Made by a program: the position numbers and the translations under genes. Positions 1,758 to 9,328 of a DNA stretch of 15,634 bases are shown here, one piece after another (within the stretch, counting starts at the first letter, position 1; each line of letters begins with the position of its first letter). Below the pieces are notes generated by a model. That model was not told the DNA's origin. It did no database searches and saw only the letters and a program-made list of their open reading frames with translations. This DNA comes from a virus. Taxonomy: Duplodnaviria > Heunggongvirae > Uroviricota > Caudoviricetes. Where the stretch lies: IMG/VR virus record IMGVR_UViG_2713896900_000009, one strand, 5' to 3'.

Positions 1758-2810
1758 TTATTTCCCCACCAGTTCACTTACCTCTTTCACCGTCTGGTTA
1801 AACCGATCTGACTCAAGCTCAACACCTAACGCCCGACGCCCCAGCGCCATTGCTGCTTTTATTGTGGAACCGGATCCCATAAAGAAATCAGCAACCAGAT
1901 CGCCTGGTCGACTACTGGCATTAATTATTTGCCGGAGCATATCCGCCGGTTTCTCACACGGATGTTTACCCGGGTAGAATTGAACGGGTTTATGCGTCCA
2001 GACATCGGTATAAGGCACGGAGACTGATACGGAGAAATAGCGCCGGAGAGATTTAAATTCATCCAGCAATTCAGAATATTTGCGGCTCAGCGACTCATAA
2101 GTCGCCACCAGCTGGTGGTGTGAATGTTCCAGTTGATTGCGCTGAAACTTCTCTGCCGCAACGCTGGCAAACAACGCCTGCAACTTCTGGTAGTCCGCCT
2201 CGTTCGGTAATTGCCACTGACAGGCACCGAACCAGTGGGACACCATGTTTCTCTTTCCAGTAGCTTCGGCTATCTGCTTTGTCGTTATGCCCAGATCAGC
2301 ACGTGCATTCCGGAAATACGAAATCAGCGGCGCCATGACGTGCTGTTTAAGCTCTCGTTCTTTCGCCGCATAGCCGTCATCTTTAGGCCGGTATGGCCCC
2401 TGATAATGTTCCGCGAACAATATGCGTTCTGTGGCAGGAAAATACGCCCGCAGGCTTTCTTTATTACACCCGTTCCATCGTCCGGATGGTTTCGCCCAGA
2501 TGATATGATTAAGCACGTTGAAACGTTCACGCATCATGATTTCAATATCAGATGCCAGGCGATGTCCGCAGAACAGGTAAAGGCTTCCAGCTGGTTTCAG
2601 TACCCGCCAGAATTGCGCCAGACACTGGTCCAGCCATTTCAGGTAGTCTGCGTCCCCTTTCCACTGATTGTCCCAGCCGTTTGGCTTCACTTTGAAATAC
2701 GGCGGATCGGTAACAATAAGGTCAACGGAGTCATCAGGCAGGGACTGGATAAAATGCAGGCAATCAGCGTTGATTAACTCAACACTGTTTATTTTTACAG
2801 TATTTTTCAT
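1758..2810 (-). CDS. DNA methyltransferase, beta-class N6-adenine/N4-cytosine type (apparent orphan, no adjacent restriction gene seen)
   Basis: 350-aa translation has the catalytic motif IV DPPY near the N-terminus (LIVTDPPYF) and the SAM-binding motif I FxGxGS near the C-terminus (DFFMGSGST), the circular-permuted beta-class order. It is the first large gene of the late-strand block upstream of the holin. Confidence 0.8.
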   Translation of the reverse strand: MKNTVKINSVELINADCLHFIQSLPDDSVDLIVTDPPYFKVKPNGWDNQWKGDADYLKWLDQCLAQFWRVLKPAGSLYLFCGHRLASDIEIMMRERFNVLNHIIWAKPSGRWNGCNKESLRAYFPATERILFAEHYQGPYRPKDDGYAAKERELKQHVMAPLISYFRNARADLGITTKQIAEATGKRNMVSHWFGACQWQLPNEADYQKLQALFASVAAEKFQRNQLEHSHHQLVATYESLSRKYSELLDEFKSLRRYFSVSVSVPYTDVWTHKPVQFYPGKHPCEKPADMLRQIINASSRPGDLVADFFMGSGSTIKAAMALGRRALGVELESDRFNQTVKEVSELVGK

Positions 2811-2960
2811 AGATCAGTAAGCGTAACTCTGGTAGGCTCACGCTGCTTTTGCGCTAAAGCAGTGGGCCATGGTTCGCTTGTGACCAGTTAGCATGAGCGA
2901 ATGGCTGGCAGGTGCTACCAACACCCACCAGCCGCCCATTTTCACAGCAGGAAACCGCCA

Positions 2961-3164
2961 TTACTGGCAGCGTCTGAATTTATTCCCATACCCGCCGTTA
3001 TCCTTCGCCAGACCCGCCAAAACTAACTGCGTCAGTATCAACTGACACCGGGCTTCGCTTACCCCGGTAATACTCGTCATCGCACGGGGCGTTATCCACT
3101 TGTCAGCAGGTAAGAAATGAAGGACTGTGGCGGCGGTTTCTGTCATATCTTGCTGTTTTAGCAT
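2961..3164 (-). CDS. Small hypothetical protein (67 aa), possible helix-turn-helix fold
   Basis: ORF from the track with a plausible ribosome-binding site (AGGT about 8 nt upstream of the ATG at 3164). The segment ITPRAMTSITGVSEARCQLILTQLVLAGL is helix-turn-helix-like. No family recognised; could be spurious. Confidence 0.3.
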   Translation of the reverse strand: MLKQQDMTETAATVLHFLPADKWITPRAMTSITGVSEARCQLILTQLVLAGLAKDNGGYGNKFRRCQ

Positions 3165-3284
3165 GTCTTTTTACCTTTTCTGGTTAACCTGACACACCAA
3201 TAACTCTTGTCTAAAAAGCCAGCAAGATAAAAAGTCGGTATTCACCTCCACCAGCACGTTTACTGTACTGGACCGCTTTTTGGC

Positions 3285-3311
3285 ACAAAAAAACCCGCTC
3301 GGAGGCGGGTT
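3285..3311 (-). terminator. Intrinsic terminator oriented for minus-strand (late-direction) transcription; candidate tR'-like site
   Basis: Read on the - strand: GC hairpin (CCCGC/GCGGG stem, 3293-3308) followed by a run of seven U (plus-strand A-run 3285-3291). On the + strand the same hairpin has only three T after it. Confidence 0.5.
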
Positions 3312-3423
3312 TAAGCTGTGTGGCGAAGTAACCACTCTTAACACAATACAATAGTTTTTGCGTACGCGTTAGCATTTTTGTTAAAGTATAAAAATGTAAT
3401 TAAACCAGTATGTTATCACTACA

Positions 3424-4308
3424 ATGAAATGCATCCGAAAACATCCAGCAATAGCTTATACAGTAATTATTTTAGTTTTTGCCTTAATATACAATTTCAC
3501 TTGGAGCGTCAATCCAGATTCTTTCATTAAAAACAACGTTCTCAACTCTACACCTGTATATGATGCCGTTAATTTAGCATATGCGAACAATGAGGTAAAA
3601 AAAGAAGATCCTGTCAGTGTTTCGAGGGAAGTATTTGCAGAGCAAATTTTAACACTTACAAATCAATTCAATAAGATAATAATTGAAAACTTAGAACTTG
3701 AAAAAACATTATCTCAACAGCAAGAAAAATTAAAACAAATTAGTGAAAGACAATCAATAAAGTGGGGCGAAAACACCAAAAAATACATAGCAGACAGTTT
3801 GAAAGATTTACACAAAACGCTTATCACTAAAAATAGTGAACGTACTGCCATAACATCTTTAAAAAACAAAACAAATGAAAGTCAGATTAACATTATGCTG
3901 GCCGACAAAGATGAAGAAATAGCCAAAATAAACCTTGAAATAGCGTATAAAGAAAATGATGCTAATGTCTATATCTTATCTCATGTCGGCGACTTTAACG
4001 ATCCAATAATCGTTAATGAGCTTGACGCAATCAATAAAGAAATTGAGAAAACAAGAACAAAAATAATAAACAATAAAAAGAAAATAATGGAGATAAGGAA
4101 TAAATCTCAATCTATGCTGGAGAAACTCAAAAAAGATGACCTTAACTTTTGGGATTTCTTATTTTATAGCATAGGAATATCTACAACGACCACCTTTGGT
4201 GATTTGTTAGCAAATTCAAGACTTATCAGACTGATAGTTTGCGTGCAACTTTTACTATCAATTATAGTTTTAGCTAACGTAACTCAAAGGTTTTTATCAA
4301 AAAAATAA
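3424..4308 (+). CDS. AT-rich cargo (moron) gene encoding a membrane protein: N-terminal transmembrane segment, long Lys/Glu/Asn-rich predicted coiled-coil, C-terminal pore-loop-like two-helix module. Function unknown
   Basis: 294-aa ORF on the strand opposite to every neighbouring phage gene. Composition is visibly far more AT-rich than the flanks, with AAA/AAT/ATA codons dominating. N-terminal hydrophobic stretch AIAYTVIILVFALIY. C-terminus FWDFLFYSIGISTTTTFGDLLANSRLIRLIVCVQLLLSIIVLA resembles the pore-helix, filter and inner-helix of a K+ channel (for example the KcsA region LWWSVETATTVGYGDLYPVT) but with a non-canonical filter. Hairpin terminators flank it on both sides. There is no strong Shine-Dalgarno upstream. 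Confidence 0.6.
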   Translation: MKCIRKHPAIAYTVIILVFALIYNFTWSVNPDSFIKNNVLNSTPVYDAVNLAYANNEVKKEDPVSVSREVFAEQILTLTNQFNKIIIENLELEKTLSQQQEKLKQISERQSIKWGENTKKYIADSLKDLHKTLITKNSERTAITSLKNKTNESQINIMLADKDEEIAKINLEIAYKENDANVYILSHVGDFNDPIIVNELDAINKEIEKTRTKIINNKKKIMEIRNKSQSMLEKLKKDDLNFWDFLFYSIGISTTTTFGDLLANSRLIRLIVCVQLLLSIIVLANVTQRFLSKK

Positions 4309-4707: not shown

Positions 4708-5703
4708 TCAGGCCAGCACACCAATTGCCAGCGCGCGATCGATAAATCGAAAAATCAGCTCCAGTTGGGAACCATACTTCTCTTCAAACGCCACGGTGTC
4801 CGCATGCAGCTCGTCGTGATGCTTTCTGCACAATGGCAACACAAAGAGGTCATGCGCTTTTGTACCCATTCCACCCTGACCGTGACCTATCAGGTGATGG
4901 GGATCATCAGCAGGCTTTCCACAACATGCACACGGCTGCCTCTTAACCCAGCGCGTGTACTTTTCATTAACCCAGCGGCGGCGTTTTGGGCGTAACATAA
5001 AAGACTCCGGCGACTCCGGATCCACTTTCAGCGCCAGCACCTTTTTCGCTTTATCCTGGATGATGCTGGTGGCAGGAACCGAAGGCACAAGGTCACTTTC
5101 CCGGGTGACAGACGGCACAACAGGTTTCGGTAATCTCAGCGCCTTACGGGCTGCGCTTTCAGGTAAGGCATCCGCCAGGTCATTACGAATCAGCCACCAG
5201 CACAGTTCCGGCATTGTCACGGCATGGTTATCATCAAAACCGAGATCCCGACGGACTACAGACAACACCCAGCGGGCACAGTTATCCGTTGCCATTGATT
5301 CCAGCCGTTCCGTGAACTGATCGCGCAGCTGGTTATCGCAGTGCCAGCACAGACGGATTGCTCCCGGAGCGTGTCGCATTGTGGTCATGTTCTCGCTGTG
5401 CCAGTCGGAATGAGGCCACTGGCAGCCTTTTTCACGAAGTAACCAGCTTTCAAGACATTCCACGCCACCAGCACGACGGATCACAGCCTCATTGCGGAAC
5501 ACGGCCCGAACGGCTGGATCATCCGCCAGCGGTTGTGATGCCGCCGGAACGGCACCACTGGCGAAAGATGAATAACGTTCCGGCTCAGGCTCCAGCAGGA
5601 CACGCCCCTGCATAAACAGGGGCATCAGCTCTGAACCTGGTCTGAACAATACGATCCCCATACGCGGGGCAATTTCAGGGGTCAGTAGTGCTCTCACGGT
5701 CAC
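4708..5703 (-). CDS. DUF968-family prophage protein (YdfU-like) with a C-terminal Cys/His HNH-like motif
   Basis: 331-aa ORF packed 2 nt from Q and 2 nt from the upstream gene. The C-terminus CACCGKPADDPHHLIGHGQGGMGTKAHDLFVLPLCRKHHDELH is a Cys/His cluster typical of DUF968/HNH-like proteins of lambdoid nin regions. Assignment is from recollection. Confidence 0.55.
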   Translation of the reverse strand: MTVRALLTPEIAPRMGIVLFRPGSELMPLFMQGRVLLEPEPERYSSFASGAVPAASQPLADDPAVRAVFRNEAVIRRAGGVECLESWLLREKGCQWPHSDWHSENMTTMRHAPGAIRLCWHCDNQLRDQFTERLESMATDNCARWVLSVVRRDLGFDDNHAVTMPELCWWLIRNDLADALPESAARKALRLPKPVVPSVTRESDLVPSVPATSIIQDKAKKVLALKVDPESPESFMLRPKRRRWVNEKYTRWVKRQPCACCGKPADDPHHLIGHGQGGMGTKAHDLFVLPLCRKHHDELHADTVAFEEKYGSQLELIFRFIDRALAIGVLA

Positions 5704-6533: not shown

Positions 6534-6923
6534 TCAGGCGGCTGCACCCGCCGTTTTCTCGTACTTACTGATAGTGATCTCGACCTTCCCTCCCGGGATA
6601 ACCGGTCCCCACTCAACCAGCATTCTTTTCACCTGACTGTCGTCTTCCCACACACCCGCATGGGTCGGGGCGTCAAACAGCGCCTTGTTATAGTTGTCCA
6701 GATCGCGGATCCGGTTATCCGGAGGAAACAACACGATCTCCACTGAAGCAGGTGCCGACGTTGGTTTCGGCAGGCGACGTAACTGCTCAACTATTGCTGC
6801 GCACGCCGCGCTCTGGAATTTGCGCCCCGCTGCGCTTATCAGACTCTTACCAGCAAACGCCCCTTTGTTGGGGTGTCGCCAGTACGTGTTCACGCTGGGC
6901 GGGAAAGGCAAGATCAGCTTCAT
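6534..6923 (-). CDS. rusA: Holliday-junction resolvase RusA
   Basis: 129-aa translation carries the RusA signature as I recall it from E. coli RusA (PPSVNTYWRH; RDLDNYNKALFDAPTHAGVWEDDSQV; VEITI). Typical nin-region position. Confidence 0.75.
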   Translation of the reverse strand: MKLILPFPPSVNTYWRHPNKGAFAGKSLISAAGRKFQSAACAAIVEQLRRLPKPTSAPASVEIVLFPPDNRIRDLDNYNKALFDAPTHAGVWEDDSQVKRMLVEWGPVIPGGKVEITISKYEKTAGAAA

Positions 6924-7246
6924 ACTTTCAGGCCCCTCTCATGTAACCAGTGGGCTGCACGCAGCCTGGCGTTTTCCTCACCGGCAAGCAGTGCGCGGAT
7001 AATCCCGACCGCCTCGCTGTCGTCGTCCTTCACCGCGGTATGAAGCGTTATCCCCCGGGCCACGCCACGCTTTATCGTGATGACGCCTTTTTTCTCCAGT
7101 GCACGAAGATGCTCTACCGCTGCATTCACTGAACGGTATCCCAGCATGGTTGCCACCTCCTGATTGGTTGGCGGAAAGCCACGCTCTTTCTGGTAAGAAA
7201 TCAGCATATCCAGCACCTGCTGCTGGCATTGAGTTAACGTCGTCAT
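6920..7246 (-). CDS. LexA N-terminal DNA-binding-domain-like protein lacking the S24 autoprotease domain
   Basis: 108 aa. The N-terminus aligns by eye with the LexA DNA-binding domain (LT..QQ.V.D.I.....G.PPT..E.A..LG.RS.NAA.EHL.AL..KGVI.I..G..RGI.L). No Ala-Gly cleavage site or Ser/Lys peptidase domain follows. Start overlaps the stop of the upstream methyltransferase gene by 4 nt. Confidence 0.5.
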   Translation of the reverse strand: MTTLTQCQQQVLDMLISYQKERGFPPTNQEVATMLGYRSVNAAVEHLRALEKKGVITIKRGVARGITLHTAVKDDDSEAVGIIRALLAGEENARLRAAHWLHERGLKV

Positions 7247-7896
7247 GCCGCCATCTCCCTGACCAGTTTTTCCGCCTGCTGGCGAACCTGCGCCAGAAAG
7301 GCCTCACCACATGCCTCAAGTTCATCGCGCCCGATGTAGCTGATTGTCGGTCCCTTCCAGGTCTTGTCGAAAACAGCAATAGCACCAGCGAAGAACGCTC
7401 CTGTCGGCACCTGCTTCTCGTCCTTCGGGATAAACCAGGCAGGCAGTTCAAAACCAATACGCCCGCGAATAAAAGCAATATGGTCCGCATCTTCCGGCCA
7501 CCACACTTCGCTGGTGGCAGCTTTGATCAGGAAAACATAGCGCCCGCCCTTATCACGCATGGCACTGGCATGTTTCATGATGTAACGCATGCCGGTGATG
7601 TATTGCCCCTCATGCTGACTGGCGCGGCTGTATGGAGGATTTCCAAAGGCAGCACCTTTAAGCTCCGCAAGACGTTCTGACCAGTCATGCGCCAGCGCGT
7701 TGTCTTCCGCCGTGTAATACGCGGCGCATTTGGCGTTATCACCGTCAGTAAACAGATCCAGAACAAACGGGCCAAACAGGGTGTTAATTCCCCAGAAAAT
7801 GTTGTCCGGTGTGCGCCACTGATCGCCCACTTCCTTCAGTTCATGGGCTGGTTTGTTTCGCAACTCCACCAGCGCCTGGCAATATTTATTACTCAT
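7243..7896 (-). CDS. Phage Dam-like DNA N6-adenine methyltransferase (start at internal Met; track ORF extends to 7929)
   Basis: Catalytic NPPY motif (AAFGNPPYS) and overall resemblance to the small phage N6-adenine methyltransferase family of lambdoid nin regions. The ATG at 7894-7896 overlaps the upstream gene's stop in a TAATG arrangement. Confidence 0.7.
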   Translation of the reverse strand: MSNKYCQALVELRNKPAHELKEVGDQWRTPDNIFWGINTLFGPFVLDLFTDGDNAKCAAYYTAEDNALAHDWSERLAELKGAAFGNPPYSRASQHEGQYITGMRYIMKHASAMRDKGGRYVFLIKAATSEVWWPEDADHIAFIRGRIGFELPAWFIPKDEKQVPTGAFFAGAIAVFDKTWKGPTISYIGRDELEACGEAFLAQVRQQAEKLVREMAA

Positions 7897-8390
7897 TAAG
7901 CCCCCACGTAATTCCCTGACAGATACCACTCATCACCCGATACAGCGCGCTTGCTGCTTTTCCGTAAGCACCGCTCACGACGTGCCAGAAAATTGTTTCG
8001 TTCTGGCTGGGAGTGGCTTTCACGGAATGCCGCCATCCACACCGTTGCAGCACGACGGTATAAGCCCCTTGACTCCAGTTCTTCAGCCTGGCGGGTCAGG
8101 CACAAAATCACCCGGGGATCGTTAGTGCCGACATAGAAATTGCGCACAGGTCTGGTTTCACGAACTGGTTGTGGTTCCGGCTCCTGCGCTCTCTCAGTCA
8201 GGCGCGGGAAATGTCTGCGTGTATCTCCTTCACAACGGTGAGCCACACGCCCACTCTGACGTAACTTGCTTGCTGACTGCAGAACGCGCTGCCGTGAGTA
8301 ACCTGCAAAAGCATCCGCAATGTCTCCGGAAGTACACCCCGGATGGGCTTCAATGAATTTCTGAACTTCATTCAAAAGACTCATAATCAC
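7896..8390 (-). CDS. PerC-like putative transcriptional regulator with an N-terminal winged-helix-like region
   Basis: 164 aa. The C-terminal segment TRQAEELESRGLYRRAATVWMAAF resembles the PerC/Pch family core (..LE..GLWRRAA..W..). The start overlaps the replication gene's stop. Assignment is from memory and weak. Confidence 0.4.
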   Translation of the reverse strand: MIMSLLNEVQKFIEAHPGCTSGDIADAFAGYSRQRVLQSASKLRQSGRVAHRCEGDTRRHFPRLTERAQEPEPQPVRETRPVRNFYVGTNDPRVILCLTRQAEELESRGLYRRAATVWMAAFRESHSQPERNNFLARRERCLRKSSKRAVSGDEWYLSGNYVGA

Positions 8391-9328
8391 CCCCTGAATC
8401 CTGCCGGGATCTGGCTGTAGTCCACATTGTCGTAACTGGCTTTGAAGTACGGGTCTTCACGTTTTTCTGTGTGCGTGCTGACGGACGGCGATAAGCGCAG
8501 GGAAAGCTCATCCCATTTTTCCCGCAACTTCGACGGGCTGAGCACGTTACGGCACCAGAACGGATCGCGGCTGACGCGGCTGTACATCTCGCAGATTTGT
8601 TTGTGAGTACGACCATCCTGCACACACATCAGGCGAATTTCGTTTGCCCAGGCTGTCCAGTTAGGTTCTTTGGGACGAACCACCTCGCCGTCACATTCGG
8701 CGGCCTGCTCGTACAGGGCGATGATTTTTTTCCAGAGCCACTGTGCGCAGGTCAAATCATCCTGCGTTCCCCACTGGCGCTTTTTAGGGCTGAATACAAC
8801 CGCATCAGGATGGCGAGTTAAAAAATCCTGTTCATCCATCTGCGTGTCCGGTTGCGAAGCGTCCGGACGAGAAGGTTTTTTATCTGATGGATCATGTTTT
8901 GATTTTACTGACGGATCCCCGCCAGATTCTGACGGGTGAAAACCCGCTTTTTTGCCAGATTTCGACGCATCAAATTTTGACGGGTCAGATTTTGATGCGT
9001 CAGATTTTGACGGGTCAGAATCTGACAGTTGAGAAAATGCCGCTGCCTGAAGCTTCGCAACGTTAAGCTGATAAACATTCGACGCATTGCGGTTACCCTG
9101 GCGACGCGCCTTACGCGTTAACCAGCCTTCTGCTTCCAGCCGTGCGATAGCCGTTCTGACGGTACTCATCCCCGCGCCAATCTGGCGGGCAATGGTTTCA
9201 ATTGATGGCCAGCACACACCTTCGTCATTACTGAAATCAGCCAGGCGGGCCATAATTGCCACGCTGGATAATTTCATGCCTGACGCTGCGCAACCATCCC
9301 ATACATAGCCGGTTAATTTAGTGCTCAT
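8387..9328 (-). CDS. Phage replication initiation protein (O-like: N-terminal helix-turn-helix DNA-binding domain, repeat-encoded linker, C-terminal domain)
   Basis: 313 aa. N-terminal winged-helix region (WPSIETIARQIGAGMSTVRTAIARLEAEGWL). The central low-complexity linker SDPSKSDASKSDPSKFDASKS is encoded by tandem 15-bp DNA repeats. The gene sits in the O position downstream of the cro and CII-like genes. Confidence 0.6.
   Translation of the reverse strand: MSTKLTGYVWDGCAASGMKLSSVAIMARLADFSNDEGVCWPSIETIARQIGAGMSTVRTAIARLEAEGWLTRKARRQGNRNASNVYQLNVAKLQAAAFSQLSDSDPSKSDASKSDPSKFDASKSGKKAGFHPSESGGDPSVKSKHDPSDKKPSRPDASQPDTQMDEQDFLTRHPDAVVFSPKKRQWGTQDDLTCAQWLWKKIIALYEQAAECDGEVVRPKEPNWTAWANEIRLMCVQDGRTHKQICEMYSRVSRDPFWCRNVLSPSKLREKWDELSLRLSPSVSTHTEKREDPYFKASYDNVDYSQIPAGFRG
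8900..9030. repeat. Tandem iteron-like repeats of about 15 bp (TCAGATTTTGACGGG and variants, at least 6-7 copies) inside the initiator gene; candidate phage origin of replication
   Basis: Seen directly: tgattttactgacgg, cagattctgacggg, cagatttcgacgcat, caaattttgacgggt, cagattttgatgcgt, cagattttgacgggt, cagaatctgacagtt. The arrangement (iterons within the initiator gene's linker-coding region) parallels ori-lambda inside gene O. Confidence 0.5.

Follow-up and report, generated by a model that had tools for sequence, protein, structure and literature searches.

The investigated window, i.e. the whole analysed stretch of 15,634 nucleotides, is a lambdoid prophage. It carries the genes for an integrase, an S24-type cI, a Cro/YdaS-like protein, CII(CP76), an O-like replication protein, a PerC-like protein and a Dam methyltransferase. 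After Dam follow a LexA-like gene, RusA, KilA-N, DUF968/HNH and Q. Beyond Q an opposite-strand moron, a small ORF, an N6/N4 methylase, holin, lysozyme and Rz were found. The phage origin of the LexA-like gene, which had been proposed in an earlier note on this DNA, was confirmed by this prophage context with integrase, cI, CII, Q and lysis cassette. No Rfam family reached its gathering score anywhere in the window.

Some further features of the window were observed. Between Q and the late promoter region an AT-rich ORF of 294 aa (3424-4308, plus strand) runs on the opposite strand. Its product resembles a coiled coil in the N-terminal part, gave a weak match to the ion-channel family Ion_trans_2 in the C-terminal part and had no PADLOC match; the ORF may be a moron or exclusion gene. 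An ORF of 67 aa without Pfam match (2961-3164, minus strand) is located between a tR'-like terminator (about 3285-3310) and the methylase; its counterpart in phiSTEC1575-Stx2k is annotated as 'TrmB family transcriptional regulator'. Within the O-like gene (8387..9328, minus strand) a repeated peptide, DPSKSDASKSDPSKFDASKS, corresponds to DNA direct repeats at about 8900-9070, which are probably origin iterons.

The LexA-like ORF (6920..7246, minus strand) comprises 108 aa plus stop and was examined by means of the ORF list, Pfam PF01726, PHROG 362 and pN/pS. Its start codon ATG occupies positions 7246-7244, with GGGAG ahead of it at 7255-7259, and the encoded protein begins with MTTLTQCQQQVLDMLISYQKERGFPPTNQEVATMLGYRSVNAAVEHLRALEKKGVITIKRGVARGITL, followed by HTAVKDDDSEAVGIIRALLAGEENARLRAAHWLHERGLKV. 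Upstream lies a Dam-family N6-adenine methyltransferase (7243..7929, minus strand; Pfam PF05869, E=9.8e-46), downstream the RusA Holliday-junction resolvase (6534..6923, minus strand; Pfam PF05866, E=3.5e-13). From sequence and ORF coordinates, an ATGA overlap was found between the Dam stop and the LexA-like start (7243..7246, minus strand) and another one between the LexA-like stop and the RusA start (6920..6923, minus strand); the latter is also present in the related loci L003, L007, L012 and L016. Judged by these overlaps, the gene is translationally coupled to Dam upstream and to RusA downstream, and it has no private intergenic space. A scan for promoters and terminators on the gene's strand from the O-like gene to RusA gave nothing above chance, and no notable palindrome was detected by an inverted-repeat scan in and around the LexA-like gene. 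As these scans stayed at chance level, an operator near the gene was rejected. Since no promoter- or terminator-like site above chance lies between the O-like gene and RusA, we infer that the gene is part of the PR/nin operon and yields a delayed-early product.

The LexA-like gene is ordinary in kind and already catalogued. PHROG 362, a phage 'transcriptional repressor', was matched end to end (E=1.6e-59, residues 1-108 on profile 1-106 of 106). NCBI/PGAP uses the label 'LexA family transcriptional regulator', and the copy of mEp460 is labelled 'LexA DNA binding domain protein', as is SfII gp44. PHROG 362, SfII gp44, SfV orf42 and the mEp460 protein represent the same gene as that of the window, nothing differs, and the labels are annotation only. 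With PADLOC merely a weak wHTH match was obtained for the LexA-like protein, indicating no membership in a defence system. The gene is under purifying selection, tail included. Towards all homologues pN was well below pS, and for the domain and the tail each, non-synonymous change was far under the saturated synonymous change.

Residues 1-68 (7043..7246, minus strand) were assigned as a LexA-type winged helix-turn-helix DNA-binding domain with the AF2 model and Foldseek. [quoted passage not shown] The Pfam family LexA_DNA_bind (PF01726) was detected with 69 bits at a cut-off of 23.7 (E=2.9e-19), residues 1-65 spanning all 65 positions of the model. In the BLASTP alignment with E. coli LexA, 43% of the residues were identical over 90 aa (E=1e-21); identity to the E. 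coli LexA NTD was 51% over residues 2-70. An unrelated winged-helix family, which the earlier note had named as a result that would speak against its interpretation, was assigned by none of the profile searches. The AF2 model (mean pLDDT 84.7) has the winged-helix topology of LexA; within residues 1-68 helices were predicted at 6-22, 28-35 and 40-52 and strands at 56-58 and 66-68. Among solved structures, the E. coli LexA NTD 1lea (E=6.5e-16) and LexA in full length matched best, with E-values of about 1e-15 to 1e-16 overall. With Foldseek the model was superposed on the LexA-DNA complex 3jso with an rmsd of 1.0 Å over 68 columns at 50% identity. E. coli LexA (1lea, 1jhh, 3jso) thus has the same winged-helix domain end to end, and the similarity continues via the hinge to Ala-Gly. 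In contrast to E. coli LexA, the window protein is phage-borne and encoded in the nin region, has Val at the position of Glu44 and carries a 34-residue helical hairpin after the domain.

The recognition helix comprises residues 39-52 (7091..7132, minus strand) and reads SVNAAVEHLRALEK, compared to SPNAAEEHLKALAR in LexA. Base contacts of LexA are known for Ser39, Asn41, Ala42, Glu44 and Glu45 (PMC3091678, PMC13416735). At these five contact positions the window protein has S, N, A, V and E; four of them are kept, and Glu44 is exchanged for Val. The wing residues R64-G65 of LexA are retained as well. Glu44 was found in 10 of the 12 full-length LexA representatives recovered by the same search. 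None of the aligned members of the LexA-like family retains it; they have V, A, T, F, L or Y at this position. Some clades have given up Glu45 as well (G, D, L, I), and variation was also seen at R7 and R28. In several clades the recognition helix is identical to that of LexA save position 44; the homologue of the E. coli phage mEp390 (47% identity) and many members of the p137 type thus read SPNAAAEHLKAL. The recognition surface is LexA-like with a family-specific change, and its specificity may differ from that of LexA and between clades.

The absence of the autoprotease domain, claimed in the earlier note, was corroborated in several ways. The Peptidase_S24 profile gave no match in the 108-aa protein, while the same tool does match the cI of the window. 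For the TIGR00498 lexA equivalog 70.5 bits were obtained at a cut-off of 110.95, with coverage of model positions 1-91 of 203 only, which places the protein below LexA proper. Furthermore, the protein stops 19 residues past the LexA cleavage-site position. The S24 peptidase/dimerisation domain of E. coli LexA with Ser119 and Lys156 is absent altogether, and autocleavage is therefore not possible. The accompanying claim that there is no Ala-Gly cleavage site had to be corrected. Ala88-Gly89 (codons GCC GGT, 6980..6985, minus strand) is present and was aligned with Ala84-Gly85 of LexA by HMMER and BLASTP. The pair is not conserved, since homologues read AN, VG, ER, TR, DD, AE and others, and it is placed within a helix in the AF2 model. 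A functional cleavage site was ruled out by the unconserved Ala-Gly and the absent catalytic domain. Because of the lacking conservation the pair is most likely a relic, left when the gene was born by truncating a lexA just beyond the hinge.

The DNA-binding domain is followed by an acidic flexible linker (residues 69-74; 7025..7042, minus strand), which has a pLDDT <50 at 71-73 and varies in length among homologues. The remaining residues 75-108 (6923..7024, minus strand) form a family-specific C-terminal helical hairpin with helices at 75-88 and 93-103 and a pLDDT of about 90. Its pattern is roughly EAxx-hh-RxLh...ARxxAxxxLxxxG and is kept down to about 40% identity, A97 and L101 being invariant. 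In place of the catalytic domain of LexA, a conserved helical hairpin is thus found. No solved structure resembling the hairpin of residues 75-108 was detected with Foldseek. As the two-helix hairpin of the model has no hydrophobic core of its own, it is regarded as a putative dimerisation module, which may substitute for the C-terminal domain of LexA. The hairpin was missed by the earlier reader and is relevant to the question of how tight DNA binding could be achieved by a LexA DNA-binding domain on its own. LexA residues 1-87 joined to a foreign dimerisation domain repress SOS-box promoters, and the LexA bacterial two-hybrid is based on this. Such engineered LexA(1-87) fusions have the same layout, a LexA DNA-binding domain plus a helical dimeriser, and in them repression is restored at SOS-type operators. 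They are artificial, whereas the tail of the window protein is natural and a presumed dimeriser.

According to the earlier note, the prophage was to be searched for sites of the type CTGT-N8-ACAG. One such site was found in the window, the sole SOS-box-like palindrome, which reads TACTGTAAAAATAAACAGTG on the minus strand (2783..2802), agrees with 16 of 20 consensus positions and is a candidate LexA-type site. Its core (2785-2800) compares with 0.2 expected occurrences, and at least one occurrence was counted in 34 of 200 shuffled windows (17%). Within the gene of the late-operon N6/N4 methylase (1758..2810, minus strand) the palindrome covers codons 3-8, and relatives of it were located in L013 (565), L014 (546) and L015 (548). 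Both CTGT/ACAG arms are preserved in Citrobacter phiNP and Providencia PSTRCR_117lys with an altered spacer; Klebsiella KpnBHU6 has the permitted CCAG variant. These three, phiNP, KpnBHU6 and PSTRCR_117lys, contain the box and the methylase without the LexA-like gene, while SfII, SfIV and mEp390 contain the LexA-like gene without that methylase. Since the box occurs in phages lacking the gene and the gene in phages lacking the box, the site is not a co-inherited operator, and 2783-2802 is unsupported as the cognate operator. It may be read by host LexA, form an RNA hairpin or merely reflect constraint on the coding sequence.

Upstream of the methylase, the non-coding leader 2811-2960 (minus strand) showed higher conservation in a comparison of four genera than did the start of the coding region. 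Stable hairpins were predicted for it by RNAalifold, with only 2 compensatory pairs in 4 sequences. Rfam gave no family for the leader region and only chance-level matches in 2700-3450; 2811-2960 may be an undescribed structured leader. As a separate observation, near-perfect SOS boxes (18/20) were seen within cI ORFs, namely in L001 (SfII) at 5446-5465, TACTGTTTTTATATACAGTA, and in L012 at 836-855, TACTGTTTATAAATACAGTA. Both are about 228 nt from the cI start, and the SfII box is shared by six loci of the window clade.

The LexA-like gene is widespread. At 96-100% identity it was present in 50 phage records, and by tblastn 61 records with a relative were recovered. Carriers are SfII, SfIV, SfV, the cdtI phage, mEp460, Stx2a/2c/2k phages and phi1720a-02, as well as mEp390 at 47% identity. 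Of 5426 complete E. coli genomes, 2233 carry the gene. Among phage structure predictions, LexA DNA-binding domains that stand alone occur frequently, also for unrelated phages. In a survey of Stx phages the pfam01726-only pham 237 was listed without further study, and in the 'bully phage' preprint the interference by phi1720a-02, which carries the LexA-like gene, was ascribed to Cro. No functional study of the lambdoid LexA-like family was found in the literature.

In the context analysis 209 related loci were compared, among them the window type (88 loci), the Klebsiella type p172 (98 loci) and the p137 type (19 loci). Loci of the window type show the order LexA-like gene, RusA and DUF968, the latter in nearly all of them, preceded by Dam in 57 cases. 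The coupling to Dam suggested in the earlier note is real locally with respect to the ATGA overlap; across the 88 close loci, however, Dam is upstream in only 57 and RusA downstream in every one. Where Dam is missing in this clade, PerC or a replication gene adjoins the LexA-like gene; PerC, a replication protein or a C5-methylase was seen in Dam's place. As a general functional partner Dam was rejected, for 31 of the 88 close loci have no Dam upstream, and neither do most of the distant clades. The constant neighbour across the related loci is RusA/DUF968, RusA being constant in the window clade, and Dam is optional.

A different arrangement was observed for the distant clades. In 93 of the 98 p172 loci a canonical SOS box is followed by an optional dinI-like gene, a 96-aa ORF, the LexA-like gene, a 67-aa ORF, DUF968 and Q. 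The same order, with the box ahead of the LexA-like gene, was found in 11 of the 19 p137 loci. The box is usually accompanied by the dinI-like gene, which was assigned to Pfam DinI with E=1e-25. In Kp4865-4 the SOS box is TACTGTTTATTTATACAGTA and overlaps the -10 element; boxes of LexA-like units are located in L017 (3293-3312) and L010 (5560-5579). Through this context of SOS box and dinI-like gene the LexA-like family is linked to SOS biology. As the boxes stay canonical irrespective of the recognition helix of the phage protein, they are probably sites of host LexA. In at least one phage of the distant clades, L010, the immunity repressor lacks an S24 domain; hence the SOS-controlled unit of the Klebsiella-type relatives may include an antirepressor.

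In view of the sequence features, it is still plausible that, as proposed earlier, a LexA-like protein which escapes cleavage binds to SOS boxes or to a phage operator. Our leading interpretation, to which we give a little less than an even chance, is a RecA-insensitive DNA binder of the LexA type, made during lytic growth and acting on SOS-like boxes. The protein would be made delayed-early from the PR/nin operon, translationally coupled between Dam and RusA. It would be dimerised by its hairpin, which would take the role of the C-terminal domain of LexA, and the dimer would bind a LexA-box-like palindrome with a half-site of the CTGT type, modified by the change of Glu44 to Val. As the cI of the window phage is of the S24 type, the early genes should be switched on exactly when RecA* is active. 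Since no cleavage is possible, the protein would occupy such sites after host LexA has been destroyed upon induction or in lytic growth. Repression could thus be re-imposed on promoters with SOS boxes, whether these belong to the host, to co-resident elements under LexA control or to the phage. The missing intergenic space, the lack of a palindrome and the freely varying upstream module fit a trans-acting factor with its target elsewhere, e.g. a site common to all hosts. Identity and fold of the domain, the four of five contacts, the wing R64-G65, the conserved helical tail and the SOS boxes of the distant clades count for such a surrogate of LexA. The invariable replacement of Glu44, the loss of Glu45 in some clades, the variation at R7 and R28, the probable assignment of the boxes to host LexA and the single box of the window, which is not co-inherited and has counterparts in 17% of shuffles, count against it.

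The invariable replacement of Glu44 and the variation of positions 42-45 by clade are also in line with a drifted LexA domain on a phage operator. The protein would then time middle or late functions via a phage promoter as a phage-specific transcription factor, either activating or repressing. This is a possibility to be taken seriously, albeit a rather doubtful one. GIL01 gp6 of a Bacillus tectivirus, a truncated LexA homologue, activates the late promoter P3 and is the sole characterised truncated LexA homologue (PMC6182141). It is likewise phage-encoded, essentially a LexA DNA-binding domain, non-cleavable and early, and the wide distribution of stand-alone LexA DNA-binding domains among unrelated phages also speaks for a role of this kind. 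However, gp6 has 66 aa without the C-terminal hairpin, and host, virus type and genome position differ from those of the window protein. BLASTP of gp6 against the window protein gave no local alignment at E<=100. Thus orthology was ruled out, and the two proteins are independent truncations from different LexA lineages. The gp6 operator core CACA-NN-TGTG had 0 matches in the window, and a candidate operator was found neither among inverted repeats nor in intergenic space, as a gp6-type site or at operon promoters. Moreover, phages with nearly identical copies of the gene have different late-control modules (Q type, PR' region), so a co-inherited cis site would have to be inside the RusA-DUF968 block.

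The same block is the basis of another explanation, in which the protein serves the recombination and repair nucleases of the nin region as a DNA-binding accessory and binds or bends DNA so as to help or direct RusA and the DUF968/HNH protein. No feature is conserved more strongly than the synteny, the LexA-like gene, RusA or the 67-aa ORF, and DUF968 following each other in all clades, and the link to RusA is mostly ATGA-coupled. Lambda NinH next to Rap presumably holds a position comparable to that of the LexA-like gene beside RusA. We consider such an accessory role improbable, as genes of the nin region are tightly packed and synteny need not imply a common function, and as the domain is of the classical wHTH type that reads operators, its base-contact residues being conserved. 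In addition, RusA is often missing in the p172 and p137 clades, where the LexA-like gene stays. Interference with host LexA or RecA in place of repression, either by co-occupancy of half-sites or as a trans-substrate or decoy via the relic cleavage-site region, is very improbable. It is suggested by the alignment running through the LexA hinge to the Ala-Gly position and by the existence of phage proteins modulating LexA, as reported for GIL01 gp7 (PMC4551915). But Ala-Gly is unconserved, and the segment is helical in the model and not an extended cleavable loop. In LexA, dimerisation and the contacts to RecA* are located in the C-terminal domain, and the window protein lacks this domain.

The interpretation as a LexA-type binder on SOS-like boxes can be extended to the whole family, in a form which we regard as rather unlikely. 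About 40% of complete E. coli genomes would then encode a RecA-proof surrogate of LexA, dimerised by the hairpin, which re-represses the SOS regulon in lytic growth. LexA-controlled antirepressors of rival prophages, colicins and SOS toxins would be among its targets, and in the Klebsiella type it would act in an SOS-induced negative feedback with the DinI homologue. If a phage-specific site is read instead, the protein would be one more early regulator of lambdoid development. If SOS boxes are occupied, lambdoid and Stx prophages would carry an override of the host DNA-damage response just when LexA is gone. This would bear on the induction of Stx phages, the competition of co-resident prophages and SOS-driven mutagenesis in many E. 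coli isolates.
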